Assembly (NCBI GenBank): GCA_016840405.1
Contig: JAEOSK010000009.1
Coordinates: 26,808-90,807, forward strand
Length of the DNA stretch: 64,000 nucleotides
From: Candidatus Hermodarchaeum yapensis
GTDB lineage: Archaea > Asgardarchaeota > Hermodarchaeia > Hermodarchaeales > Hermodarchaeaceae
Direction: 5' to 3'
The position numbers were made by a program, and so were the translations under genes. The notes below the pieces were generated by a model. That model made no database searches. It worked only from the letters and a program-made list of their open reading frames with translations, and was not told the origin of the DNA. This document shows positions 17,556-31,606 of the stretch, one piece after another; position 1 is the stretch's first letter; each line of letters begins with the position of its first letter.

Positions 17556-18791
17556 ATGGACGACCCACGGCCTTTGGACAGGATTTTTGAACGTTTTAGT
17601 ACTGGCCCAACTCTTATTCGTGATCGTAAAGTTCTTTGGCATTCATATGTTCCAGATGACCTTCCACATCGTGAGGAACAGATTACACAAATCGGAAGCA
17701 TATTAGCGACGGGGTTGAAAGGGAGTCGTCCATCAAACGTTTTTGTTTATGGTAAACCGGGAACTGGAAAAACAGCAGTGACTCGGTATGTTCTTCGGGA
17801 ACTAACTACTAAGTTTGGTGAACTACAGTTACCCTTCAAAGCTGTGTATTTGAATTGCCGGAATGTGGATACAGATTATCGTGTATTGGCGCGCATCTGT
17901 GCGGAGTTGGGTCAGAAAGTTCCGTTTACAGGGCTGCCAACTGATGAAGTTCATTCACGCTTGGTCGAGTTGCTAGAAAGCCAAGATCTCTTAACCATTA
18001 TTGTACTCGATGAAATCGACCGTTTAGTTTTGAAGAGCGGAGATGACACGCTCTATAAGTTGACTCGAATTAATTATGATCTTACGAGTGCTCGTGTCAG
18101 TTTGATTGGAATATCCAACGATCTTCGCTTCCCTGAGTATCTTGACCCTCGGGTGTTGAGTAGCTTAAGTGAGGAGAAGGTCATTTTTCATCCTTACACC
18201 GCATTACAGCTACAAGATATTCTTCGGCGTCGAAGTTCTCATGGACTGAAAAATGGTATTTTAGAAGAACCAGGAGTAATCAACCTATGTGCTGCTTTGG
18301 CTGCACGTGAAGAAGGTGACGCACGACGGGCTCTTGATCTCTTTCGTGTAGCAGTAGAAATTGCTGAACGTGAGGGAAGTAAAGAGGTAAAAGTTGACCA
18401 TGTTGAAAAGGCACGTTTAAGCATTGAACGTGATACTGTTCTTGAAGTACTAAGGACATTACCCGTGCAACAGAAACTTGTTCTTTATGCGGTGTATGTA
18501 TTAGAACGTCATAAACATCCACATCCAGTTACAGGAGAGGTGCAAGATGTGTACGGTGAATTTTGTTCGCAGTTGGGTATGGATCCTTTAACCCAGCGTC
18601 GGGTTAGCGATCTCATCAATGATCTTGATGCCATTGGAGTAGTTAATGCTAAGGTTGTAAGTAAAGGACGATATGGACGAACCAAAATTATCCGGTTGAG
18701 TGTCCCGAAAACAATGATTGCAGATGTATTAGAACGAGATAGTCGAATTAAGGCGCTATCAAGTTATGTTCCAGCAACCCCGGGTAAATAG
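17556..18791 (+). CDS. cdc6: Cdc6/Orc1-1 initiator (origin-adjacent)
   Basis: YVPDDLPHRE, GKPGTGKT, LDEID, GDARRAL, SKGRYGRT. Confidence 0.96.
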   Translation: MDDPRPLDRIFERFSTGPTLIRDRKVLWHSYVPDDLPHREEQITQIGSILATGLKGSRPSNVFVYGKPGTGKTAVTRYVLRELTTKFGELQLPFKAVYLNCRNVDTDYRVLARICAELGQKVPFTGLPTDEVHSRLVELLESQDLLTIIVLDEIDRLVLKSGDDTLYKLTRINYDLTSARVSLIGISNDLRFPEYLDPRVLSSLSEEKVIFHPYTALQLQDILRRRSSHGLKNGILEEPGVINLCAALAAREEGDARRALDLFRVAVEIAEREGSKEVKVDHVEKARLSIERDTVLEVLRTLPVQQKLVLYAVYVLERHKHPHPVTGEVQDVYGEFCSQLGMDPLTQRRVSDLINDLDAIGVVNAKVVSKGRYGRTKIIRLSVPKTMIADVLERDSRIKALSSYVPATPGK

Positions 18792-18813
18792 AACCGCGTT
18801 AAAGGTTGTCAGT

Positions 18814-19392
18814 ATGTTTAGTGTACCACGTAATCCAGTTGGCCTTGTGGATTATGCACTTCGTGCTCTCGGTAAAGATCATGTACCAATTCAACAGCTA
18901 GTATTCTTTCTTTCCTTTGATATCCGGCAGATGGCTCCTTCGCAGGCACTTAAACTTATTAAACGCCTTCAATCTGAAGGGCAGATAAGTATCGAAAACG
19001 GTTTGGTAAAAGTGTCTCATGAAATGGTGGTTGATACCGAAATCCCCACTCAGACAGCTTCAACAAATTTGGGTGAGCATCTACGATTATTTGTTAGCTC
19101 ATCCCGTTTATCTCGTGCAGTGGGAATGAACAATCAAGCCATTGAATTCATCCGCGTGTCTCAAAATCCATTGAAAGTGGAGGCCACGGTTCATGGATCT
19201 CAAGATTATATTCTCATCCTTGATGAAGCTAGCCGACGGATAGCTCATAATTGCCCTGACTGGCGAAAAGTCAGTTTGCTTCATCGATTCTGCAAACACG
19301 TGGCGAAATTATTCTTGATTTTAGAAAAGGAAGAATCTATTCGACTTCTCCAGTCGTTGCAGGTGGAATCGTGGGAATTCGAACAACTCTAA
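18814..19392 (+). CDS. SWIM-type zinc-finger protein
   Basis: HNCPDW...FCKH; start uncertain (18766 or 18814). Confidence 0.7.
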   Translation: MFSVPRNPVGLVDYALRALGKDHVPIQQLVFFLSFDIRQMAPSQALKLIKRLQSEGQISIENGLVKVSHEMVVDTEIPTQTASTNLGEHLRLFVSSSRLSRAVGMNNQAIEFIRVSQNPLKVEATVHGSQDYILILDEASRRIAHNCPDWRKVSLLHRFCKHVAKLFLILEKEESIRLLQSLQVESWEFEQL

Positions 19393-20939
19393 GTAAAATT
19401 CAGTGTTTTCACATTGAGGGTTTGTAGGTTTACAAGAGGGACGATTCCCGGTGTAGGTTCTACACCTATCAATCGTTGATAATCTGTTTGGCTTTGAAAG
19501 GTTCCCGAATTAAGAATTAGGGTTTTTCGGTAACTGCCCACGCTAGTTACATGGACATGACCACAATGAAGAATATCTGGTACTTCATCAATGACGAGCC
19601 AATCTCGCGGCTCAGCTACAATGGTTGTACTCTTCCCATATATGGGAGCAAGATGTCTCCCACGGAGCATCTCTCTCATTGCAGCAAAACTTGCTTCTAA
19701 CTCGGGTCTCGAAAGTGCAGCCATTATGTCGACAAGGCTGTCCCCATGGTAAATCAATAAATTCACATCATGAAGGCTCACTTGCGAAGGACAACCAAGA
19801 GACGTTATTTGTAATCCCGTATCTTTCAACGAAGCGAGAAAGCGATCTTCTATTGCTGGTCTTGGAATAGCCAACCGAACCCCATCATGATTCCCCGGGG
19901 CAATGAGGAGATGCATGTGAGAAGGAATTTGTTGGAGAAGTTTGTTAAGACCGTCAAATTGACTATCAAGATCGAAAAGTGTAATTTCTGCAATTTGATT
20001 TGGGTACACTCCGATTCCGTCTACAAGGTCACCATTAATGACAATATATTTTACCGTGCTAGCCAACTCGACGTGTTCTTCATCGCCTTCATTTCCTTGA
20101 AGCCAATCTAGTACCCGTTGAAAAATCTTGTCGAGAAAATTCCGGCTCCCAAAATGAATATCAGACAGCAGCAGGGCACTTACAGGTTCATTTGCTCGAT
20201 TATTTTTTCGATTCGAGGGAATATCTGGTAAAAAGAGATCCTTAGCAATCATCATCTCCGAACTCACTAAGGCTCCCTCAACACACAGTGCCTGATCGAG
20301 TAGCACAAGACGTGCCTTTGAAAATAAGTTCGGATCACGTTGTTGGACAATTACAGAGATGCGTCCTGTGGGGTCTTCTAATTCCAACGCAATATTTCCA
20401 CTCTTTGTTGTATTTTTACTGGTGATTAATCCTACAATCTTTACAGTCGCTACTTTCCCCTTTTCTTGGATATTATTTCCCTCTGCTACGTCATTGATAT
20501 CTATGACACCTTTTCCATCCACCCGTTGTGAGATGATGTCTCGTAAACGATAATACCGATCTCGGAAATTTGAAACGAAATCTTCTACTGTCCCCTTACT
20601 CTGCAATTGGGGTGTTGGGTCTTTTCTGATTTTTATTCTTGTTTTTACTCCCTCTGCTTGGAATCTAGGGTGTGTAAGTTGAGGGGTTTGGGAATCTTGC
20701 AGAAGTTCTTCTTGTGTTGGTTCTTGTGGTTTCTCTTTGGGTAGGTCAAAATGAATTGGTTCGAGAACGGGTGTGTCATTAGGGTGTACTATGTCAGAGG
20801 CTAGAAACTTATCGACAATCTGTTGGGGGTTGGATGCGGTTTGGAGCATTTGTAATGTCGCTGGGCTGACTTGAAAGCCCGCTCTAAGCAGTTTTGTAAT
20901 AGCGGTTTGAACATCAGAGTCTTCTACTGACAAACTCAT
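19389..20939 (-). CDS. polD1: DNA polymerase D small subunit DP1
   Basis: OB fold (LEDPTG), SDIHFG, GDLVDG, PGNHD, RHLAP, GHVH. Confidence 0.95.
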   Translation of the reverse strand: MSLSVEDSDVQTAITKLLRAGFQVSPATLQMLQTASNPQQIVDKFLASDIVHPNDTPVLEPIHFDLPKEKPQEPTQEELLQDSQTPQLTHPRFQAEGVKTRIKIRKDPTPQLQSKGTVEDFVSNFRDRYYRLRDIISQRVDGKGVIDINDVAEGNNIQEKGKVATVKIVGLITSKNTTKSGNIALELEDPTGRISVIVQQRDPNLFSKARLVLLDQALCVEGALVSSEMMIAKDLFLPDIPSNRKNNRANEPVSALLLSDIHFGSRNFLDKIFQRVLDWLQGNEGDEEHVELASTVKYIVINGDLVDGIGVYPNQIAEITLFDLDSQFDGLNKLLQQIPSHMHLLIAPGNHDGVRLAIPRPAIEDRFLASLKDTGLQITSLGCPSQVSLHDVNLLIYHGDSLVDIMAALSRPELEASFAAMREMLRGRHLAPIYGKSTTIVAEPRDWLVIDEVPDILHCGHVHVTSVGSYRKTLILNSGTFQSQTDYQRLIGVEPTPGIVPLVNLQTLNVKTLNFT

Positions 20940-21154
20940 TCGCCAAACAAGCCTATGTCACTATTGCTTTTCTAAAATTCGGTTGTAAATCTGGCTATAA
21001 ATGCAAATGTGTACCCATTTCAGTGCTAATTCTTAATAAAAAATAAACAAAGAGTAGCTAAAATTAAACCATTTTTTGCATGTCATTTTTTTGGTTTAAA
21101 GGGGGTTCTGAAATTGACTCATTAAATCACACAAATTTTGGAGGTATTCAATTA

Positions 21155-21193
21155 ATGAGTTACCCACGAATTCGTCCTTTACCAGGTAATTAA
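21155..21193 (+). CDS. 12-aa proline-rich peptide MSYPRIRPLPGN
   Basis: GGAGGT at 21140-21145, 9 nt before ATG; similar to the peptide at 23132-23170. Confidence 0.72.
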   Translation: MSYPRIRPLPGN

Positions 21194-21195
21194 AT

Positions 21196-21225
21196 TGAAG
21201 GCATTAATGCCTTCACCCTCTTTTT
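21196..21225 (+). terminator. Hairpin/terminator between peptide 1 and the convergent gene
   Basis: Perfect 20-bp palindrome TGAAGGCATTAATGCCTTCA followed by ccctcttttt. Confidence 0.6.
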
Positions 21226-21235
21226 GATGGGGAAA

Positions 21236-22966
21236 TTACGGTAAAGTGTGAGGTCCCCATTTCCATTTACCATTTATAAAATCATAATTCGAAGAATTTA
21301 GTGGCGGCTCAAAATCCGTTAATGTCTGCCATGCTGGATTAATACTAATGTGTGCGTTTAGCCCCATTTCTATTATTGTCTCTCTCATCGTCGAAAGTGT
21401 ATCAACAGCGCTTTGATTTGGAACACAGATGTGAACATGTCCATTTCCGTTTTCGACGATTCTTCCACTAATCAATGGGAATAGTTGTAATGCTCTCATT
21501 ATTGACTCGGTTGTTTCCTTAGGTTCAAAGATTAGAAGATGAATCGTTGTATTGAGATCGATGTGCTGTAACCAGAAATTTCCAGGGATGCCGATCTGTT
21601 GTTTTTCGAGTTTTTGTACACGTCTTCGATAACGCATGTGACTTGTTTCTAAGAGACCTGCTTTACGAACTTCTTGAGATGGTCGAGGTGTTACCCGTTC
21701 GGTTGTTCGGAACATTTCAGACGAGCGCCCAAAATATGTAAAGTCCTCTTGACGTAGCTTAATTGGGAATGTTTGATGTTGTTTAAGTAGATCATAAGAA
21801 TAGCTGTGGCTTTTCAGTGGTGGTAACGAGAAGCCGTGGTTTCCAAGTATTAATGATTGAAATTGATTAAGTTGAATTGAAAAATCGGTGGGCCATCCTT
21901 GTTCCGGAATATATGTTCTGAAATTCCAAGTAAAAGATTGATGTATAACTTTGTATACCCCAATTGGAGCTAGATTTTCTTTAGCTCTTATTGCATAAAT
22001 CCAGCTCTTAAATTCGTCCACCCGATTATATGGTATGACGAATCTGGATATCAAGAATTGTTTGGTATCGATGATGAAGTCAATATAAGGGGTTTTTGAT
22101 AGTAATGTCATGATTCTTCTTTTTTGCTTCATGTCAGAAACTTGAAGTTTAATCTCTAAAGGAATTAGTCCCAGCAAAGGAAGATTAATGAATGAAAAAA
22201 TTCTGAGCAATTGTCTTTGGGATAATCTATTGAGGGCTTGACTAATTGCAGAATCGCTAAGATTCAATATCTTGGCTAATTGACTCTGAGAGAAGTGATC
22301 AATTGTACAAAGTGCGTTGAGAATACGTAATTCGGTTTTATTTAGAGGGTTATGGGTTTCCTGCATCCATCTCTCCAAGGCAGCGGTATAGGTGGATGAA
22401 GAGAGCGGCTGGAAGCTGCTTGGGCGAATCGAGTTCAGCCAAAACAGGACGCGGTGAAGAAATAAATCACTAACAACTTGGTCAAAGATTGGAAACCCGA
22501 AAGGCGCATCATAGTTGTAATATAAATGGTATTGTGTTGGGGACACACGAGCCCACAATTCAAATATTTGTTTCTTTTCTTCGGTGTTATATTCACCAAA
22601 TTTTAAACCTGCATAAAGACCCAAGTCCGCAGCTTCGTGAATTTGGCGTATATTAGGAACAAGGTAGCTGAGAAATGCCTCCCGCCACAAAACCCATGAC
22701 AAAACGTGGGGAGACGCGACTTTGAGATCTTCTGAAAGAGTTACAGTCCAACCACCTCGAGATCCTTCTTCGGAGGGTATTTCAGTAGTACCAAATCGAG
22801 GTCCTACAAATTTCAATGATTTTGGTACAAATTGTAATTGAGTAATTCGATCTCGAACTCGGGGTAAAGGTTTGATATTAACTAAAGTTGCAAGTCGCTT
22901 CTGTAACACCCGAAACTGGGACCAAATTGAATTGGTATTAACCCGAGAAATGGTCAACCCATCCAC
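21236..22966 (-). CDS. Large HTH/Lrp-AsnC-like regulator, paralogue 1
   Basis: N-domain GPRFG/LWREAFL; HTH SQSQLAKILNLSDSAISQAL; INLPLLGL hinge; RAM-like repeats. Confidence 0.7.
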   Translation of the reverse strand: MDGLTISRVNTNSIWSQFRVLQKRLATLVNIKPLPRVRDRITQLQFVPKSLKFVGPRFGTTEIPSEEGSRGGWTVTLSEDLKVASPHVLSWVLWREAFLSYLVPNIRQIHEAADLGLYAGLKFGEYNTEEKKQIFELWARVSPTQYHLYYNYDAPFGFPIFDQVVSDLFLHRVLFWLNSIRPSSFQPLSSSTYTAALERWMQETHNPLNKTELRILNALCTIDHFSQSQLAKILNLSDSAISQALNRLSQRQLLRIFSFINLPLLGLIPLEIKLQVSDMKQKRRIMTLLSKTPYIDFIIDTKQFLISRFVIPYNRVDEFKSWIYAIRAKENLAPIGVYKVIHQSFTWNFRTYIPEQGWPTDFSIQLNQFQSLILGNHGFSLPPLKSHSYSYDLLKQHQTFPIKLRQEDFTYFGRSSEMFRTTERVTPRPSQEVRKAGLLETSHMRYRRRVQKLEKQQIGIPGNFWLQHIDLNTTIHLLIFEPKETTESIMRALQLFPLISGRIVENGNGHVHICVPNQSAVDTLSTMRETIIEMGLNAHISINPAWQTLTDFEPPLNSSNYDFINGKWKWGPHTLP

Positions 22967-23030
22967 AGACAGTTTAGAATATCATAGGATAGCACCTAAT
23001 TCTACCTTCCGATATCCATGCAACAACAAT

Positions 23031-23068
23031 GAAAAAGAAAAAAGGAAGGAACCCAAAACCCGGGTTCC
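23031..23068 (-). terminator. GC hairpin plus U-tract downstream of peptide 2
   Basis: - strand GGAACCC-N7-GGGTTCC followed by TTCCTTTTTTCTTTTTC. Confidence 0.6.
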
Positions 23069-23131
23069 AGGGCATCTAATTTCGGGGGCAAGGAACCTTG
23101 TGCCAGTTAATTCAGGTGATAATTAAACATT

Positions 23132-23170
23132 TTACGGATCCGGATAAGGTCGAATAGGGGGCCATTGCAT
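23132..23170 (-). CDS. 12-aa proline-rich peptide MQWPPIRPYPDP
   Basis: GGAGGT (23185-23180), 9 nt before ATG; similar to peptide 1. Confidence 0.72.
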   Translation of the reverse strand: MQWPPIRPYPDP

Positions 23171-23318
23171 GAGGGATTTACCTCCATAAACCTCTGAGAC
23201 TATTGGCAGAGAAATTCCATAAAAATCCCTAAAGGAAAATACAAAAATTTGAATGAAAGAGAATCAAAAATGGCTTTTTCTTACATCCTGGATTGTCACT
23301 TTTAGTGATTACTTATCA

Positions 23319-25058
23319 TCAATCATCAGATGATAGTGTTGGTAAAGTGTCTTTTGTCCAAATCCACTTTCCCTTATCAAAATGATAATTGCTTGGAATA
23401 ATGGGGTTCCCAGTTACCCAACCAAATGATTTCCATGCTGGTTTAATAGCCGTCCTAGTATGATATTCTAATTCTTCGAAAATATTTCGTAGAGCTGTTT
23501 GCACAGTGACTGCTGTTCCACTAGGTAATAGAATCATCATTGTTCCTGAGCCATTATCGAAAATCTTACCACTTACAGACGGAAGTAATTGAAAGGCAGA
23601 AATTATATCTTTAGTCCTATCATAAGGCGTTTCAATAAAAACGTTCACAGCCTCATTTAATCCGATATGCATTAAACCTAATCCCATTGGTTGACTCATA
23701 ATGTTTTGTAGGTTTAGAAAATCGACACGACGTCTATAGGTCATGTGCTCGGTTTCCCGATAACCTGCTTTCCGTGCTTCATGTGACTCATAAAATCGGG
23801 CTTGACTTGTTACCAAAAAGGCATCTGTTGCCCTTTGCATGTAAACAAAATCCTGAGGTTGAAGCGTTATTGATTTCGTTAATCTTGAGGGTGAAAACTT
23901 GAAGACATTTAGTTGAGGAATGTGAGAAGCCCACTCTTCCTTGATTATTCTGAAACAATTATCCAAGATTTGTTCATATTCTTCAGGCCAACCGCCTTGT
24001 TCGGGGTTGTAAAGATCAAAGTTCATCGAGTTTACTCTTTCTGTAGTAATGAAAATTTTAGGTGGAAATAGGTCATACCTCGCCGATATTTGTCTTATCC
24101 ACTGCCGTAATCGCGATGTCCTTTCTTTTGGAATAACGAATGAGGCGAGAAAACTGTCAGTAAATTCTTGAATGCTTTGCGTGTACCGAATTTTTGCGAC
24201 CAGGCTTTTGAGTGAATTAATAACTGTTTGATTGCTGCTAGAAAATAGTACTGTTATGGGTTGAAGACCTAGCACTGGATAGTTTTCATAAACGAAAAAT
24301 CGAAGAAGGTGTTTAGTAGCAAGTGATTTAATAACTCGACTGATTGTTGGCTGGCGAAGATCAGTGTTTTTTGCAAGTTGTTTTTGTGTGCAATGCAGAC
24401 AAGCATTTAGACCCCTAAGGATTTTCAACTCAATAGTTTGAAGGATGATATGGTGGTTGAAGATCCAACGTTCAAGATTGGCTGTGAACATTTGAGAGGA
24501 CATCTGGGTTGATGATTCTTTGAATGGTTCGAACCATTTCAAGACCATTTGAAGGAATGTACCATTAACGCTCCTATCAAAAATTGAAAATCCTGCAGTT
24601 GGGTAGTAATAATAGGACTTGTATCCTTGTGGAGGGGAAACACTCTCCCATAATTGTTGAAATTTTTGACGTTGTTTTGAAGTCCTTAGACCATATCGAT
24701 AATAACAATAGAACCCAAGATCTGACGATTCAGGAACCTTTCGGATAATACGGGGTAAATGAAGTAGGAATGCTTCACGCCAAAGGACTGGTTCTAAAAA
24801 TTCATTCCGATTTGAAAGTAGTTCTTCGGAGAGTTCCAGTATTGATTGATCATCTTTATTAGTATAAGCAATTGCTCCAAACCGAGGTCCTTTAAGCATA
24901 AATGGTGAGGGTTCCCAATGGATAGCAATATAGTGATCCAACGGCTCAGCTGCTAAACGATTACTAATTGTTTGGACTATGTGAGAAAATCGTTTAGTAG
25001 TCTCATCTTTTTGATGATCAGAATTGGTATCTTGCGGATTTGACTTTTTTAAACTCAT
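23319..25058 (-). CDS. Large HTH/Lrp-AsnC-like regulator, paralogue 2
   Basis: Shares GPRFG, LWREAFL, LERW, GWP, HMxYRRRV, PAW and SNYxFxxGKWxW..TLP with paralogue 1. Confidence 0.7.
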   Translation of the reverse strand: MSLKKSNPQDTNSDHQKDETTKRFSHIVQTISNRLAAEPLDHYIAIHWEPSPFMLKGPRFGAIAYTNKDDQSILELSEELLSNRNEFLEPVLWREAFLLHLPRIIRKVPESSDLGFYCYYRYGLRTSKQRQKFQQLWESVSPPQGYKSYYYYPTAGFSIFDRSVNGTFLQMVLKWFEPFKESSTQMSSQMFTANLERWIFNHHIILQTIELKILRGLNACLHCTQKQLAKNTDLRQPTISRVIKSLATKHLLRFFVYENYPVLGLQPITVLFSSSNQTVINSLKSLVAKIRYTQSIQEFTDSFLASFVIPKERTSRLRQWIRQISARYDLFPPKIFITTERVNSMNFDLYNPEQGGWPEEYEQILDNCFRIIKEEWASHIPQLNVFKFSPSRLTKSITLQPQDFVYMQRATDAFLVTSQARFYESHEARKAGYRETEHMTYRRRVDFLNLQNIMSQPMGLGLMHIGLNEAVNVFIETPYDRTKDIISAFQLLPSVSGKIFDNGSGTMMILLPSGTAVTVQTALRNIFEELEYHTRTAIKPAWKSFGWVTGNPIIPSNYHFDKGKWIWTKDTLPTLSSDD

Positions 25059-25238: not shown

Positions 25239-25316
25239 TGGTAGCGGGGGATTGATTTGAACAACCGATCTCGGGGTTATGAGCCCCGCGGGATATCCTG
25301 GCTACCCCACCCCGCT
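25239..25316 (-). tRNA. Initiator tRNA-Met(CAT)
   Basis: A1-U72, G-C-rich anticodon stem CGGGG-CTCATAA-CCCCG, encoded CCA. Confidence 0.95.
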
Positions 25317-25475: not shown

Positions 25476-25571
25476 ATGTATCCAATACCAGGAACTGAAA
25501 TCGGTCCATTGATGGCAATCTTTTGGGTTTTCTTTACTGTGCTGTTCTACGTCCTGTCACGTTTGGCGTAG
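25476..25571 (+). CDS. 31-aa single-TM small protein
   Basis: GGTGA upstream; MYPIPGTEIGPLMAIFWVFFTVLFYVLSRLA. Confidence 0.5.
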   Translation: MYPIPGTEIGPLMAIFWVFFTVLFYVLSRLA

Positions 25572-26597
25572 GAGCCGCATGAGGGCACGAGGTATCTCCG
25601 TGTATGAGTTGACTTTGATATAGCGTCCCCTACCAAGCTGGGCAATCTGCTGGCAGGTTTCTTCACCTTGCGGATGTGTACCTGGTGTTTGTAATACATG
25701 GAGATTGTGATACTTCCGTGCGTGGGGCTCTGGTGGTCCACCACGGTTGGCGATGCCATCGGTGATGAGGATAGCCCAAGATTCTTGTCGGTGAACACGT
25801 TGGTATTGAGTAAATGCAGTTTTTAGGGCATCGGCAATGTTGGTGTAGCCCGCAGGTTCTGTATCAAGGATTGTATCAACGATAGTATCTATTGTAGTGG
25901 GTTGATCGATGGTTTTGATAATGCTAGCAACGGTGTTGAAAGCAACAAGGGCATACTTGTCATGACGTAGGTGATATGCCGCAACAGCGGCTGCTGTAGC
26001 GGCTGTAAGAAGTTTTGTCCCGGCCATGGATCCGGAGGTATCTAAAATGATTGTGCCAATTTTTTTCCGTGCTACTCGTTCAACACCGACGATTTCATTA
26101 TAATTCACATAGTCGGGTTCTAGGAGTGTTTCTTCCAATGTTGCATCAAGGTCAAATTCGTCAAGACCTGGGTAAAAAGGGACGGTTTTGATAGTTTCAG
26201 GGCGCAGTCCACGTCCACTGATTCTTAGAGCTGAATGAATTATGGTAGCACGGGCCAGCTCACGAAATTTCTGGCGGTATTGTCCACGAATTTGATGTCG
26301 GAGTTGAAAGAAGAGTAGTGGTGCAGCAACATTCCCTTCATGGGCAGACTTTGCAATCAGGTGAACACCGTCTTGACTTGAAATGGCTTCACTTGTAGCA
26401 ATAGGTTGGAGCTGAGCGAGGGCTTGTAATGCAGTGACATTTCTTTGTTCTATGGCAAGTTCAGCCATTTCTTTTGCTTTGGGGTAATCAAAAGTACGAC
26501 CTAAACGGAGGTAGTATTGGAAATCACGTCCATTGGCTCTGATTTCCGATTCGAAGAGTTTCTCATCTGAGATGGTTCCGGAGAGAACGATGGGCAC
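25557..26597 (-). CDS. VWA domain protein (MoxR partner; possibly made as a frameshift fusion)
   Basis: MIDAS DTSGSM, YTNI, LITDG. Confidence 0.88.
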   Translation of the reverse strand: MPIVLSGTISDEKLFESEIRANGRDFQYYLRLGRTFDYPKAKEMAELAIEQRNVTALQALAQLQPIATSEAISSQDGVHLIAKSAHEGNVAAPLLFFQLRHQIRGQYRQKFRELARATIIHSALRISGRGLRPETIKTVPFYPGLDEFDLDATLEETLLEPDYVNYNEIVGVERVARKKIGTIILDTSGSMAGTKLLTAATAAAVAAYHLRHDKYALVAFNTVASIIKTIDQPTTIDTIVDTILDTEPAGYTNIADALKTAFTQYQRVHRQESWAILITDGIANRGGPPEPHARKYHNLHVLQTPGTHPQGEETCQQIAQLGRGRYIKVNSYTEIPRALMRLLRQT

Positions 26598-26600
26598 GTC

Positions 26601-26636
26601 ATCGGAGGCAGGGGCCTCCTCAGCGATTAAAAATTT
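26601..26636 (-). promoter_or_regulatory. Putative -1 programmed frameshift signal
   Basis: A AAT TTT heptamer before TAA; hairpin GGAGGC-CCCT-GCCTCC downstream; -1 frame continues into the VWA ORF. Confidence 0.7.
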
Positions 26637-27475
26637 GCTAACACAGCTTTAACGAGTGTTTTGATGACCTCGATTGCAGATTTCTGCGCGTCATCGTGTA
26701 GTTCAATTTTCGGGACAAGTGACATGATGGCTGCTTGTTCCCACACATCGTAACCTTCACCAGGTAGTTGTGTGTAGAGACTTGTAATATCGATTGCGCC
26801 CCGAACGCTAGCCCCGCGACGAATGTCTGTATAATCACGTGTTGCTCGGGTGATAGCCACGGCCAATTCTACGATTTCCTTGTCTTCAACTCCAGTATTG
26901 ATATGAACGATTTCTTTTTCTTCAGCTTCGGTATGATAGTCGAGATAAAGCCAGACGTAGCGATCCCGTAGAGCTTCTCCGAGTGGTGTTACACCTACGC
27001 TGGCCTCAGGATTTTGGGTAGCGATTATTCGGAATCCATTTTTTGCTTTTATAGTGCCTAGCTTTGGTACATGTAACGTTCCCTCGTCCATGACTGGGAG
27101 AAGTGTATTCTGTGTTGCTTCTGGCATACGGTTAATTTCATTAATGAAAAGCACTCCACCTGTTTCCATCGTTTCTACAAGAGGACCGGGAACGAAGGTG
27201 TCGCGGGTATATCCGTTTTTGAGTACAACCGGGGGATCGAACCATCCCACTAGCTTCGCTGAGGTATAGCGTTCATCTCCATCCACACGGAAAAATGAAC
27301 GTCCTAAGAAATTAGTAATGGCAGAGGCGATTGTGGTTTTCCCGACACCAACTGGGCCTTCGATGAGCATGTGTTTATCTGCCTTATCGGATGCTAGACA
27401 TTGCGTAATAAGGTCTTGGCGACCAATGATTTTATATTCCCGTTGAATTGTTTTGATGTCTTTGGAGAGGACCAT
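26627..27475 (-). CDS. MoxR-family AAA+ ATPase
   Basis: IIGR, GPVGVGKT, FINEINR, IATQNP, ALRDR, SVRGAI. Confidence 0.9.
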   Translation of the reverse strand: MVLSKDIKTIQREYKIIGRQDLITQCLASDKADKHMLIEGPVGVGKTTIASAITNFLGRSFFRVDGDERYTSAKLVGWFDPPVVLKNGYTRDTFVPGPLVETMETGGVLFINEINRMPEATQNTLLPVMDEGTLHVPKLGTIKAKNGFRIIATQNPEASVGVTPLGEALRDRYVWLYLDYHTEAEEKEIVHINTGVEDKEIVELAVAITRATRDYTDIRRGASVRGAIDITSLYTQLPGEGYDVWEQAAIMSLVPKIELHDDAQKSAIEVIKTLVKAVLANF

Positions 27476-27595
27476 TAAAGTTCACCCTGATGCGTTTTGG
27501 GAGCCGTCCCTCTAAGTAAAGTGTTTGGGTAGAACAGCAATCGAATAGAAGAGAAAAAAATGTTTATTGGTAAGGAAAATCATAATTAAAGGCTA

Positions 27596-27692
27596 GCGGA
27601 GTTGGCGGAGCGGTAACGCGCTGGACTCGAGATGACCGAGTCATCCAGTGACCTTCGTGGTCGCAAGGGTTCAAATCCCTTACTCCGCGCCA
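27596..27692 (+). tRNA. tRNA-Ser(CGA) with 11-nt intron (27632-27642)
   Basis: Long variable arm; CTGGA-CTCGAG|intron|A-TCCAG; encoded CCA. Confidence 0.92.
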
Positions 27693-27705
27693 CTTTCCTT
27701 TTCTG

Positions 27706-28701
27706 CTATATCACAAGGTCGGCTATGTCAATACTCGATTCAAAAATTCGTTCCACATTATGGATTACCCGATCGAACACTGGTAAAACAGACAAATCCT
27801 GTCTCGCTAGCACTTCAGTAAGTTCGAAAACCAGTTTAGAAATCGATTGTTTCTGGGCAATTACCTTTCGAGCTCGAACACTATTTTGTTGGAGGACAGC
27901 TGTAATTGCTTCTCGATGCGCGCGTAAAACTTGATCACTGAGTTTTGTTAATACTTGTGAAAACGGCCGCGGAGGAAAAATATACCCTTCTGTGACTACT
28001 TGTTCTGCTATACTCGCACACCCATCTGCAATTGCTTCTACTTCCTTTGCGACCAGCCGATAATCCAAGAGGTTGAGTGGAGAAAGCAGTAAATCACCAC
28101 TTGGTGAGGCAATTGCTTTCCGAAGTTGTCGGACGACCAAGAAATACAACCGATCTACTTCCCGATCTCGGGCAATAACATCTTGTGCCAGCTCTTGGTC
28201 ATTACGAATAAACGCATGAATCGCGTCTTCGTGCATCTTTGCTGCAATCCCATAGGTTCGCCGTAAATAGGTCCGTAAATCGATACTCCTGGGAATCATA
28301 CACTGCAAAGTCATGCTAGAGGCTTCTTCTTCCATAATTTCAACTCCGACAAGGAACTCAGCCATTCCTTTCACTTCGCGCTTCAAGGTGGGCGTCATCG
28401 CTTCTCCGAGATTAACTTCAATCACATCGTTGCCAGCCAAATAACAAGCAAGTATGTTTCGAGAAACATTGGATGGATCCGAGATAACACTACGGAGTCG
28501 AAGTGGTTCCTCTTCAAGTCTAGGATTGATGATAAGCATTCCATCTGCCCGTTCATGAACCAAAATCATTGAACCTTTCTTTAGTCCCTGTTCCTCCACC
28601 CACTGCTTTGGAACCGAAAGAAGAAATGAAGCTCCCACACGTTGTAGTTTCCGGGCTTCCATATTATTCACCACATATGAATTCTCTTTTCCCTTCACCA
28701 T
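27706..28701 (-). CDS. phoU: AbrB-PhoU phosphate uptake regulator
   Basis: RKLQRVGASFLLSVPKQW; DREVDRLYFLVVRQL. Confidence 0.85.
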   Translation of the reverse strand: MVKGKENSYVVNNMEARKLQRVGASFLLSVPKQWVEEQGLKKGSMILVHERADGMLIINPRLEEEPLRLRSVISDPSNVSRNILACYLAGNDVIEVNLGEAMTPTLKREVKGMAEFLVGVEIMEEEASSMTLQCMIPRSIDLRTYLRRTYGIAAKMHEDAIHAFIRNDQELAQDVIARDREVDRLYFLVVRQLRKAIASPSGDLLLSPLNLLDYRLVAKEVEAIADGCASIAEQVVTEGYIFPPRPFSQVLTKLSDQVLRAHREAITAVLQQNSVRARKVIAQKQSISKLVFELTEVLARQDLSVLPVFDRVIHNVERIFESSIDIADLVI

Positions 28702-28760
28702 AATAGCTTATCATGTGTTCGATGAAGGTGTGCTATTAATCAATCCCGAAAAACGTAAAA

Positions 28761-28837
28761 TGGTGGGCCGGACGGGCTTCGAACCCGCGACCTCTCGGTT
28801 ATCAGCCGAGTGCCCTACCAAGCTAGGCCACCGGCCC
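28761..28837 (-). tRNA. tRNA-Ile(GAT)
   Basis: CTCGG-CTGATAA-CCGAG anticodon arm; encoded CCA. Confidence 0.95.
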
Positions 28838-28887
28838 ACATGAAGTACGTGGATGCGCGTAGACTCTTTTCGTTTATCAAAAGCTTT

Positions 28888-29093
28888 GAGACGACTTTTT
28901 CTTTAGGTCGGGGATGAATCATGGAGGTTAAATACGTTTCTGCAATTCATTTAGTGAGGTCCTAGTCGGGGTCCGAGAACCAAGGAACCTGACTGGGCAA
29001 CATCGCCGGAACGGCGAGTAGAGCCTGTGGACCAGTTGACAGTGGTCGATGGTATGAAGCAGGAAGCTCCATCCTTCGGATGGGGTAGTTCAC
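28888..29093 (+). mobile_element. Non-autonomous IS200/IS605-type remnant with right-end (omega/reRNA-like) structure
   Basis: Left-end-like CTTTAGGTCGGGGATGAAT; right-end GAAGCTCCATCCTTCGGATGGGGTAGTTCAC; no tnpA or tnpB. Confidence 0.68.
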
Positions 29094-29121
29094 ATGGATT
29101 TTGCCGAAGCATATTGGGTGT

Positions 29122-29196
29122 TGGTGGAGTGGCCGGGATTTGAACCCGGGGCCTCGTGTGTGCGAGACACGCGATCTACCACTGATCTACCACCCC
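29122..29196 (-). tRNA. tRNA-Ala(CGC)
   Basis: G3-U70 pair; CGTGT-CTCGCAC-ACACG; encoded CCA. Confidence 0.93.
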
Positions 29197-29209
29197 TTTG
29201 GTTTCGGGG

Positions 29210-31606
29210 TTATTTTGGTGGGGGTATTTTTGTGTTGCCCTTTGTGGTGAATTTGATGGTTTTTATGTTATGCATCCGTTTAAGATCCTCGGCGTAGGGT
29301 TTGAGAGTCTTCGTTGTTGAAACTGTTGAGATAGGCGCACGGAGACTCATTTTGTGGTCTTTTTTGTGTTTCCAGAGGTCAGCGTTGAATTGGATCAAGG
29401 TATCGGTGGGGTGGTCTTTTTCAATTCCATCAATAGGTTCAGGGAAGTATAATTTGTGAATAGATGTGTCCGTGTCATAGAGGGTACGGTGAATTTTCTC
29501 GGTGATGAAAGGGCAAATCGGTGCCAAGAGTTTGAGGATGGCATGCAGGATCGTATGAAGAGTGAACCAGGCAGCGTTACGTCCTAGTTCATCCTCTTTG
29601 GAATAGGCACGTCCTTTGACGAGTTCAAGATAATGACTCGCAAAGAGGTCCCAAGTGAAGGTGCGAAGTTCACGGGCAGGAATGATGAAATCGAGTTTGC
29701 TATAACCGGCTCTGGCGCGATGGATTAAATCGTTTAGTTCAGAGAGAATCCAGTGATCAGCAGGTTGGAGTTCAATGTCATCGCCTTTGATTTGTGGGAA
29801 TCCAGAGATGAATCTGGAAATATTCCAAAGTTTAGTAAGAAACCGATATGCCCCTGCAAGCCGACCTTCACTGAATCGGAAATCAGAACCTAAAGAGGCT
29901 TCAAGAGCACCCCAAAGACGTAATGCGTCTGTGCCATATTGGTCGAACAATGGGTTAGGATCAATACTATTTCCACGGGATTTACTCATTCTTTCTCCAT
30001 GCTCATCAAGACCCATCCCACTGATCCAGATGTATTCGAAGGCGGGAGCCTTGAAAAGCTGGTAAACACGTAAAATTGAATAGAAAAGCCAAGTGCGAAC
30101 TATATCCTTCCCCTGGGGACGAATGCTAGCTGGAAAAAGACGTTGAAAGAGTTCATTGTCTTTAGTGTAGAAAGTGACAATAAGGGAGCTGATGGATGAG
30201 TCCATCCAAGTGTCCATAGTCCGAGTTTCCCCTTCGAAACTTTCCGAAGCCCCGCATTTTGGGCAATTCTTAATTGGTGGAGGAGTCTTCCACGGTTGAT
30301 AATATGGACCAACTGGTGGAACAATTGTCTCGTCACATTGTGTACAATACCAAAGGGGGATTTCGGTACCATAAAACCGACGACGGCTAATAGGCCAGTC
30401 CCGATTGACGCTATTTATCCAATCGATGAGAATCTGCTTGTTTGCGGTGGGAAAGAAAGTCATTTTATCGATGACGTTGCGAAGTTCATCAAGGTATGGT
30501 GTTTGTTTCAGGTAGTATTCTGGCATGGCAATGAATTCAATGGGGTTTCGACTCCGCCAACAGGTAGGTGTTCGATGAGAAATTGTCTCTTGTTTGATAA
30601 CGAGGTCCTTCTTGTGGAGGTCGTCGAGGATTGCTTTTCGTGCTTCCTTAATAGTCATGTCTTTGTAAGGGCCTGCAGCTTCTGTCATTTTCCCATCGGC
30701 ATCTAGGGCGTTGATTGGTTGGAGCTGTAGTTCTCTAAATAGTCTAACATCTGTATAATCGCCATAACTACAAACCATAACGACGCCGGTACCGAATTCA
30801 ATTCGAGCTTCGTGGTGCGGAATGATAGGAACTCGTTTATTGTATAACGGTGTGAGCGCGGTTTTATTTTGAAGATGTTGGTATCGTTCATCATCGGGGT
30901 TAACGAGGACAGCTGCGCATGCTGATAGGAGTTCAGGTCGTGTAGTAGCAATGAGTAATTCTTCACCTGAATCCTCAATAGTGAATTTCAGGGTTGTAAG
31001 GGTGGTTTGAATGTCTTTATATTCAACTTCAGCATCTGCGATGGTAGTTCCGCATTCGGAACACCAGTTATTGGGACGATCATCGATATAGACGAGTCCT
31101 TGATTGTATAGTTCAATGAACGTTCGTTGTGTAACTGCACGATAATCTGGATGATCAGTACGATACATCTCGTCGTGTTTGAAGGAGTTACAACTCAAAC
31201 CCAAACGTTGAGCCATTGCAACAATGAGTCTTTCATTTTGGTCCAGAAATTCAGCACACTTATTCAGAAACTCTTGACGAGGAATATCGTGCATACTTAT
31301 GTTGTAAGCTTTTTCCACTTGAACCTCGATGGGTAGTCCATTACGGTCTAGCCCCATAGGGAAAATGACCTCATAACCTTCCATGCGTTTTGTTCTGGCA
31401 ATCGTATCAATTTGAGCATAATGAATAGCACCGCCAATATGCCAAGGTCCGCTTAGGTAAGGAGGAGGTATGTCTATGGAATAGATGGGGCTCTGGGTTT
31501 CCCGGTGGAATGTGTAAAGCTGATCTTTGGTCCAAAGCTCAAGGATTTCTAATTCGATTTCTGGTTGCCAGCGTTTTTCCTTTAATTGTGTATTTTGCCC
31601 CATCAT
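29210..31606 (-). CDS. valS: Valine--tRNA ligase
   Basis: PPPYLSGPWHIG, WPISRRR, DTWMDSS, RMSKS. Confidence 0.93.
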   Translation of the reverse strand: MMGQNTQLKEKRWQPEIELEILELWTKDQLYTFHRETQSPIYSIDIPPPYLSGPWHIGGAIHYAQIDTIARTKRMEGYEVIFPMGLDRNGLPIEVQVEKAYNISMHDIPRQEFLNKCAEFLDQNERLIVAMAQRLGLSCNSFKHDEMYRTDHPDYRAVTQRTFIELYNQGLVYIDDRPNNWCSECGTTIADAEVEYKDIQTTLTTLKFTIEDSGEELLIATTRPELLSACAAVLVNPDDERYQHLQNKTALTPLYNKRVPIIPHHEARIEFGTGVVMVCSYGDYTDVRLFRELQLQPINALDADGKMTEAAGPYKDMTIKEARKAILDDLHKKDLVIKQETISHRTPTCWRSRNPIEFIAMPEYYLKQTPYLDELRNVIDKMTFFPTANKQILIDWINSVNRDWPISRRRFYGTEIPLWYCTQCDETIVPPVGPYYQPWKTPPPIKNCPKCGASESFEGETRTMDTWMDSSISSLIVTFYTKDNELFQRLFPASIRPQGKDIVRTWLFYSILRVYQLFKAPAFEYIWISGMGLDEHGERMSKSRGNSIDPNPLFDQYGTDALRLWGALEASLGSDFRFSEGRLAGAYRFLTKLWNISRFISGFPQIKGDDIELQPADHWILSELNDLIHRARAGYSKLDFIIPARELRTFTWDLFASHYLELVKGRAYSKEDELGRNAAWFTLHTILHAILKLLAPICPFITEKIHRTLYDTDTSIHKLYFPEPIDGIEKDHPTDTLIQFNADLWKHKKDHKMSLRAPISTVSTTKTLKPYAEDLKRMHNIKTIKFTTKGNTKIPPPK

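Follow-up and report, generated by a model that had tools for sequence, protein, structure and literature searches.

Peptides that act through cytoplasmic receptors are known from the RRNPP systems, from the Rgg/SHP pairs of Firmicutes and from the phage arbitrium system AimR/AimP, in which a tiny peptide gene lies beside the gene of a cytoplasmic helix-turn-helix (HTH) protein. In RRNPP and arbitrium systems, receptor-peptide modules are also found duplicated, with diverged peptides, and prgQ/prgX provides an example of convergent peptide and receptor genes. Here we describe a gene cassette with comparable features in a 64,000-nucleotide (nt) stretch of Candidatus Hermodarchaeum yapensis (GenBank assembly GCA_016840405.1, contig JAEOSK010000009.1, positions 26,808 to 90,807; hereafter the window). 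The organism belongs to the Asgard archaea, the archaeal lineage closest to eukaryotes. The cassette consists of gene A (579 aa), a micro-gene for a peptide termed alpha, gene B (576 aa) and then a convergent micro-gene for a second peptide, beta. No description of a system of A/B proteins and peptides was found in the literature searched.

The locus departs from the described systems in several ways. RRNPP and arbitrium receptors are tetratricopeptide-repeat (TPR) proteins, whereas A and B, which have no TPR match in Pfam, are predicted to join a pseudo-zincin domain to a double Lrp/AsnC module. The peptides of those systems are secreted as pro-peptides and re-imported; here the whole product is 10-12 residues long and the surroundings include no conserved exporter or Opp gene. 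The named systems are bacterial or phage-borne, while the host here is an Asgard archaeon and peptide binding is a prediction. The original prediction, made by a model from the DNA letters alone, had likened the cassette to RRNPP/arbitrium pairs, and this likeness does not extend to membership, as TPR domain, pro-peptide and signal sequence are all absent. By this comparison the cassette resembles RRNPP, Rgg and arbitrium systems in logic only, without their defining features. The same prediction had noted that neither a signal peptide nor an exporter was visible, and indeed there is none in the open reading frames (ORFs) and none conserved nearby.

Most of what had been claimed for the layout was borne out. 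Both 12-codon ORFs lie at the coordinates originally given, each with GGAGGT exactly 9 nt upstream, and each is followed by a hairpin, which begins 3 nt past the stop codon for beta and lies 63 nt past it for alpha. The two large genes, described as paralogous, are 34% identical over 541 residues (E 2e-96). Both micro-ORFs were said to lie beyond the 3′ end of a large gene, which is correct but incomplete: alpha, past the 3′ end of A, also precedes B on the same strand, at a distance of 166 nt. A motif that the two peptides share, [YWF]P.[ILV]RP.P, occurs at these two sites alone when all six frames of the 2.7-Mb genome are searched. The genome contains 138 GGAGG-led ORFs of at most 15 codons, and only six of these, alpha and beta included, encode at least three prolines.

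The distribution of the cassette was determined in a survey of 400 Asgard genomes. Full-length A/B pairs are confined to one GTDB family (f1, Hermodarchaeota-like), in which 16 of 18 genomes carry the pair: all 14 from the window's genus (g1) and two of four from a second genus (g2). In the 14 orthologous loci that were fetched from other metagenome-assembled genomes (MAGs), where B is 37-85% identical, A and B were without exception in tandem. Homologous loci lacking the micro-ORFs, named in the original prediction as evidence that would count against it, did not turn up: alpha is present in 16 of the 16 genomes with an A/B pair and beta in every locus that extends past the 3′ end of B. In orthologous loci, fetched and family-wide, both micro-ORFs are proline-rich, led by a Shine-Dalgarno (SD) sequence and found at the same positions, a recurrence far above chance. 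The pattern GGAGG-N8-11-ATG-[WYF]-P-P-x-[RH]-P gave 13 matches in 11 genomes of the family, each at the A/B locus, and none in the 381 other Asgard genomes; a reversed control likewise gave none.

The two peptides keep to different partners. In the fetched loci alpha precedes B by 150-480 nt and shares its strand, except in L016, where alpha is upstream of A. In genus g1 it lies downstream of A, and in genus g2 upstream of A, with the same promoter, SD sequence and terminator. Beta is always convergent with B, on the opposite strand just past its 3′ end. Because alpha adjoins A in both gene orders and beta stays at B, alpha travels with A and beta with B. The peptides themselves look paralogous: in canonical form both are ten residues long, the second of them aromatic and the third, seventh and ninth proline. 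Together, these observations lend indirect support to the cognate peptide-protein pairs that had been proposed. In a quick maximum-likelihood tree, A and B form one clade (support 100) in which A is monophyletic (100), as are the B genes of g1 (98), and the cassette is single-copy and vertically inherited within the one family. Outside the A+B clade fall a paralogue, C, and relatives of ~540 aa from other Asgard families. Micro-ORFs were not found beside these relatives or beside C, which is followed instead by an ordinary co-directional gene. Paralogue C (~598 aa; G000 contig 33, 26343-27683; L003/L073) is conserved in all family members, and contig 3 carries a weak fourth relative (L004) immediately ahead of the window. 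MAGs with homologues bear the labels Hermodarchaeota, Hodarchaeota and Promethearchaeota. Those that GTDB places in one family (loci L005-L018) are variously labelled Promethearchaeota, Hermodarchaeota, Odinarchaeota or Thorarchaeota, and such labels are unreliable for lineage.

The peptide sequences and the pattern of their substitutions point to genuine coding genes. Alpha has the consensus M(x)[WYF]PPx[RH]P[EDN]P.. and the canonical form MWPPSRPEPF, orthologues including MQWPPVRPEPTP, MWPPSRPEPF, MWPPRRPEPH, MYPPRRPEPL and MHYPPTRPNPF, among others. Beta has the consensus M(S)YPx[RQ]..P.P.. and the canonical form MYPARDPFPS, with MSYPRIRPTPGL, MSYPRLRPPIPGV, MYPARDPFPS, MYPQRDPFPS, MYPPRDPFPS and MYPPQHPFPY among its orthologues. 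Most ORFs are 10-14 codons long, with one form of 24 codons, and they differ by whole codons; no hydrophobic signal sequence, leader or pro-region was found in them. The start codon (ATG, in a few cases TTG) and the stop codon are kept in every locus, despite 40-50% protein divergence of the neighbouring genes. When 17 different DNA sequences of the alpha core were compared, the first, second and third positions of the codons had mean entropies of 0.31, 0.45 and 1.24 bits, and those of the four invariant proline codons 0, 0 and 1.26 bits. Synonymous changes include CCT/CCC/CCA/CCG for proline and CGT/CGA/AGG for arginine, while Glu/Asp alternates among GAA, GAT and GAC. Since substitutions are concentrated at third codon positions, selection acts on the peptide itself. 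Taken together with their distribution, this pattern indicates that the micro-ORFs are real, conserved coding genes under selection and exclusively linked to A/B.

Copies of the micro-genes have also been gained and lost. Intact tandem alpha copies are present in two loci (L018, 2760-2870; L029, 1255-1360), and decayed second copies in three others, where they are frameshifted (L005, 2782-2840), startless with ATA (L006, 2800-2845) or degenerate (MWPASRPELNQK; L009, 2783-2822). The alpha of the window is of the second-copy type, whose coding part is decayed in the closest relatives. A beta gene of the second genus (L016, 4770-4845, minus strand; G107 contig 62 near 8000) contains the core twice in 24 residues, MYPPSRPDGGPNNYPPSRPDGGPN, and may encode a bivalent or processed form. 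As far as can be judged from these sequences, extra copies, decayed copies and a duplicated core are the behaviour of genes that encode a product. The peptides were also compared with proteins elsewhere in the genome, and no segment that they might mimic was found; their consensus fits none of the eukaryote-type proline-motif ligands (SH3, WW, EVH1, GYF, UEV).

Each micro-gene appears to have expression signals of its own (Table 1). In relatives, alpha and beta genes alike are preceded by the layout TTTTGCA-N12-13-(C/G)TTTAWA, ~55-70 nt from the start codon, and it is rare in the window's own genome, with 3 matches. The putative alpha promoter of the window is the positional equivalent of TTTTTGCA-N12-CTTTAAA in relatives. 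GGAGG[CT] is located 8-11 nt before the start codon in nearly all orthologous micro-genes, a few having weaker versions (GTGGAG, AGAGGC). In most g1 loci alpha has a hairpin with a T-run downstream, as have both micro-genes of the window's own genome, and a clear hairpin after beta was mostly not found in relatives. The palindrome downstream of alpha is retained in most g1 loci as GGAA(A/C)CC-loop-GG(G/T)TTCC, with paired A/C-T/G changes, and its form in the window, GGAACCC-N7-GGGTTCC, is unique in the genome. Similarly, ATCGGAAGGTAGAATTA is retained across g1 loci as ATCGGAAGGTARAATTA, beginning ~45 nt ahead of the B start codon, and is unique in its own genome. Because this conservation and uniqueness go beyond the needs of a generic terminator or promoter, the palindrome and ATCGGAAGGTAGAATTA may be operator sites. 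The start of B has no SD sequence, and the B mRNA is probably near-leaderless and driven by its own promoter. Since B has a promoter-like motif of its own and no SD sequence, alpha is not merely a leader of B. Two further ORFs overlap these elements and are probably spurious: an 84-aa ORF (22872-23126, plus strand) antisense across the alpha terminator and the B promoter, and a 37-aa extended beta ORF (21080-21193, plus strand) whose ATG is upstream of the beta TATA box.

Table 1. Features of the A/B cassette, with positions numbered from the first letter of the window; the control elements are putative.
Feature	Position	Strand	Remarks
Gene A, 579 aa	23319-25058	-	Paralogue of B, same architecture
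Alpha promoter region, TTTTTGTA element and TATA-like TTTTTAT	23219-23247	-	Function inferred
Alpha Shine-Dalgarno, GGAGGT	23180-23185	-	9 nt before ATG
Alpha micro-gene, MQWPPIRPYPDP + stop	23132-23170	-	Between A and B, same strand
Palindrome GGAACCC-N7-GGGTTCC with T-rich tract	23031-23068	-	Putative alpha terminator and/or operator before B promoter; hairpin 23068-23048, T-rich tract down to 23031
Motif ATCGGAAGGTAGAATTA	22997-23013	-	~31-47 nt before B start codon; probable TFIIB recognition element (BRE)/TATA promoter
Gene B, 576 aa	21236-22966	-	Predicted zincin-like N-domain, two Lrp/AsnC-like modules, aromatic tail
Beta promoter, TTTTGCA (21074-21080) and TATA box TTTAAA (21095-21100)	21074-21100	+	Function predicted from sequence
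Beta Shine-Dalgarno, GGAGGT	21140-21145	+	9 nt before ATG
Beta micro-gene, MSYPRIRPLPGN + stop	21155-21193	+	Convergent with gene B
Beta terminator-like hairpin TGAAGGCATTAATGCCTTCA + T-run	21196-21225	+	Between beta stop and B stop; hairpin 21196-21215, then T-run

The domain architecture of A and B was predicted with good confidence. In an AlphaFold model of B (predicted local distance difference test, pLDDT, 87), two modules (about 208-347 and 408-544) each consist of a winged HTH (wHTH) followed by a RAM domain, with the secondary structure beta-alpha-beta-beta-alpha-beta, and an aromatic tail is also present. Pfam matched B to MarR_2 only (residues 208-255, 29.9 bits against a cut-off of 27), the MarR_2/HTH_24 similarity falling on the first HTH. 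In Foldseek, the C-terminal 370 residues were best matched by the siroheme decarboxylase NirDL (4ch7; E 2.4e-8, template modelling (TM) score by target 0.53), and the Lrp/AsnC regulators 2dbb, 7fby, 2cyy and 2e1c were matched with probability 1.0. The wHTH and RAM module of Lrp/AsnC regulators such as PH0061 (2dbb), FL11/PH1519 (2cyy, 2e1c) and ST1022 is thus predicted twice in A/B. Those regulators are ~150-aa proteins with a single module, whereas A and B, at ~580 aa, have two fused modules, a 205-residue front domain and the aromatic tail. The known effectors of Lrp/AsnC proteins are free amino acids, not gene-encoded peptides. A covalent tandem of Lrp-like modules is also seen in NirDL/AhbA-AhbB (4ch7, 4czc), but NirDL is only ~12% identical to A/B and has no extra N-domain, and genes for heme d1 or alternative heme biosynthesis were not found in the A/B gene context. 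NirDL is an enzyme and, to our knowledge, not one that binds peptides. The term regulator, used for A and B in the original prediction, is therefore apt only in part: the proteins are not plain MarR regulators but double Lrp/AsnC modules fused to a predicted pseudo-zincin.

The front domain of B (residues 1-205) was modelled alone with a pLDDT of 89, and its predicted fold is that of the zincin catalytic domain, with backing helix, mixed sheet, active-site helix and glutamate helix, as in the M1 tricorn factor F3, leukotriene A4 (LTA4) hydrolase and thermolysin. A VIA-align search of 48,161 chains gave eight matches at Z of at least 8, all to peptidases or to a peptidase-like putative lipoprotein, the best being the M1 peptidase F3 (1z1w; Z 9.8, root-mean-square deviation 4.3, 170 residues aligned). 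Among the 50 matches listed, all were zincin peptidases or peptidase-like proteins, including thermolysin, angiotensin-converting enzyme and the inactive M1 homologue TAF2. An ESM-atlas shape search returned the M61, M48 and YgjP families (TM 0.41-0.63). Foldseek against the PDB (best E 0.14) and language-model look-alikes (0.77) yielded nothing usable. Zincins carry HExxH and a third ligand; A, B, paralogue C and 23 distant relatives have no HExxH, and no histidine is invariant in residues 1-204 across the family. The motif in the conserved site is instead x-R-E-x-x-[LFM], and the invariant residues of the domain are W94, R95, E96, R107, E111, D114, W138, Y150 and Y152. A profile search of 1.84 billion proteins found 34 representatives, all of the same narrow family and none bearing HExxH; nearly all the full-length ones are ~530-590 aa with the same architecture. 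In the absence of HExxH and of a conserved histidine, the front domain is probably a degenerate, non-catalytic zincin, comparable to the non-catalytic, M1-derived TAF2 of TFIID, and it may retain a peptide-binding cleft. Peptidase-type domains joined to an HTH are also found in ImmA and in IrrE/PprI; in IrrE/PprI, a weak match in Foldseek, they are accompanied by a small-ligand-sensor domain as well, much as predicted here.

From these findings we suggest that the micro-genes and A/B probably form a small-peptide/receptor circuit. Alpha and beta would be transcribed as independent micro-genes and translated to proline-rich peptides, which most likely act inside the cell, since they have neither signal sequence nor leader. 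There each would be a dedicated ligand, or pseudo-substrate, for the sister proteins encoded next to it, and the zincin-like front domain of A and B, devoid of the zinc-binding HExxH, would offer the candidate peptide-binding cleft. Occupancy by peptide would alter the action of A/B at DNA, tuning DNA binding by the Lrp-type modules; the palindrome ahead of the B promoter and the conserved promoter elements of the two micro-genes are candidates for the DNA sites. Translation, binding, binding site, DNA binding and regulatory output are all inferred. The central step, in which A and B bind the unprocessed peptides inside the cell as ligands, perhaps within the peptidase-like cleft, is the explanation we prefer, and we give it a little short of an even chance.

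Several points weigh against this ligand explanation. The strongest is that paralogue C and distant members of the family keep the invariant residues of the N-domain (xREx, PExxDL) and have no peptide genes, so that the conserved site may serve another ligand. The zincin assignment comes from a predicted structure, in which any residue equivalent to HExxH is putative, and similarity of the N-domain to peptidases was not found by sequence in Pfam, in a PDB sequence profile or in the profile search of 1.84 billion proteins. Nor is it certain that A and B bind DNA, given that the wHTH of A falls below the Pfam threshold and that NirDL, the closest structural match, is an enzyme rather than a regulator. 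At the nucleotide level, 16 of 17 sequences use CCC for the first proline of alpha (23161-23163 in the window) while the codons of the other three prolines vary freely, which suggests an added constraint on the nucleotides or on decoding and translation. The sequencing runs listed for this DNA are DNA metagenomes (marine sediment, seawater, estuary), with no RNA run among them. A complex prediction for full-length B with the 37-residue ORF that contains beta, itself probably not expressed, gave an ipSAE of 0.01, which speaks neither for nor against binding.

The main rival explanation is that the micro-ORFs are cis-acting translation sensors. The sequence M-[WY]-P-P-x-R-P-[DE]-P would stall the ribosome, through a need for aIF5A or through a tunnel ligand, and so alter termination at the hairpin; read-through from alpha would enter B (A in g2), read-through from beta would be antisense to B, and the peptide itself would have no function. 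Arrest leaders of 8-24 codons are known (ErmCL, TnaC), and Pro-Pro and Asp-Pro contexts depend on EF-P/eIF5A. TnaC, ErmCL/ErmBL, trpL and the polyamine-responsive AZIN1 PPW upstream ORF resemble the micro-genes as ORFs of 8-24 codons with conserved aromatic, acidic or proline residues. The peptides have the stalling-prone, proline-rich character of such leaders, with four prolines in ten residues, Pro-Pro right after the start and RP[DE]P or DP motifs, and the near-invariant CCC codon likewise suggests a constraint at the level of decoding. Ribosome-dependent attenuators are transcribed together with the gene they control and can form overlapping terminator and anti-terminator structures; alpha precedes B in g1 and A in g2, with a hairpin and T-run between it and the same-strand large gene. 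However, the anatomy suits this explanation less well than the sequence does. Anywhere from ~2 to 96 nt separate the hairpin from the stop codon, neither an alternative nor a conserved anti-terminator pairing was seen, and B has its own conserved promoter-like motif past the hairpin, without an SD sequence. Unlike arrest leaders, the micro-genes have promoters of their own and alpha a terminator as well, both of which it kept when it moved from its place ahead of B to one ahead of A. On the strand of beta no gene follows and, in relatives, mostly no clear hairpin. The invariant aromatic and arginine residues, the variable C-terminal tails and the tandem copies suit a product better than a stalling cassette, and the neighbouring genes are unrelated to proline or polyamine metabolism. 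We therefore regard a purely cis-acting role as unlikely. The two ideas can nevertheless be combined: because the peptides are near a worst case for proline peptide-bond formation, their level could report translation capacity.

The peptides might alternatively be exported or modified, serving as a signal, as a proline-rich antimicrobial or as a cofactor-like ribosomally synthesized and post-translationally modified peptide (RiPP), with A/B as modifying enzymes, immunity factors or sensors. Tandem copies, and the doubled core of MYPPSRPDGGPNNYPPSRPDGGPN, recall multi-core precursors; NirDL, to which the C-terminal half is structurally closest, is an enzyme, and the N-domain is predicted to have a peptidase fold. 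Gene-encoded peptides of this size can be substrates, as established for the 7-residue MccA of microcin C7, whose gene mccA (7 codons) also parallels the micro-genes as a functional gene of extreme shortness and has a strong SD sequence and a terminator hairpin right after the ORF. But the A/B cassette has no counterpart of the other genes of the mccA operon, which encode the adenylating enzyme MccB, an exporter and immunity functions, and RiPP precursors have a leader and core and adjacent modifying enzymes, whereas these peptides of 10-12 residues show no leader/core split and no signal peptide and have only A and B as conserved neighbours. No transporter, radical-SAM, YcaO, ATP-grasp, ThiF-like or other modifying gene is conserved in the cassette; the remaining neighbours are housekeeping genes that vary between loci (Cdc6, PolD small subunit, MoxR/VWA, class I tRNA synthetase). 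The peptidase-like domain has no conserved histidine, and single-copy, vertical inheritance in one family is unlike that of typical accessory RiPP clusters. The RiPP interpretation offered in the original prediction consequently finds no leader, conserved modifying enzyme or exporter to build on, and a fate of this kind seems to us improbable. It is harder still to believe that the ORFs are incidental, and that the conserved elements are small RNAs or DNA operator and terminator sequences with the peptides as by-products. Nucleotide-level conservation of the flanking promoter elements and of the palindrome would agree with it, and convergent transcription of beta and B could work through antisense RNA. 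An RNA-only function is nonetheless contradicted by the codon substitution pattern, which is strongly three-periodic, amino acids being kept while codons change. Start and stop codons are kept everywhere, a GGAGG-type SD sequence is present in nearly all genomes, ORF length varies by whole codons only, and no Rfam family matches the micro-gene region.

The cassette lies among housekeeping genes (17556-20939 and 25557-31606) near the replication origin, and in relatives it is flanked by the same genes in a reshuffled order. Neighbours in the window encode Cdc6/Orc1, a DUF2240 protein, the PolD small subunit, a VWA protein, a MoxR-type AAA protein, a PhoU-like protein and a class I tRNA synthetase of 798 aa. 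A tRNA gene (25242-25316, minus strand; Rfam 56 bits) is immediately upstream of gene A, and tRNA genes are found here in relatives too. Upstream of A, most relatives have a conserved element of ~110 nt (L007-L014; L018, ~650-830; L034, which is G110), containing ..CAGCCACCCGGAyCACGACCAAGCAGTCGyGTCA.. with a CACGAC/GTCGTG hairpin. This element is absent from the window's own genome, had no Rfam match at the gathering score (L011) and was ruled out as a third ORF, having no consistent start codon or reading frame.

Genes of 10-12 codons escape annotation, and the comparative evidence for the two described here is unusually clean. The predicted architecture of the candidate receptors, a pseudo-peptidase joined to a double Lrp module, is new. 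A peptide with a cognate cytoplasmic receptor is a known kind of system, and the mechanism proposed for this cassette is unproven. If the peptides are ligands of A/B, the cassette would represent a peptide-sensing transcription-factor system without a described archaeal counterpart. In its fullest form, this would be the first archaeal peptide circuit, with unprocessed intracellular ligands of ~10 residues whose genes rank among the shortest conserved ones known, paired transcription factors with a dead zincin sensor and a peptide level that reports aIF5A or translation capacity, a picture that as a whole we consider rather doubtful. For the biology of uncultured Asgard archaea, two decapeptides, two proteins and three short conserved DNA elements offer a testable handle on gene regulation.

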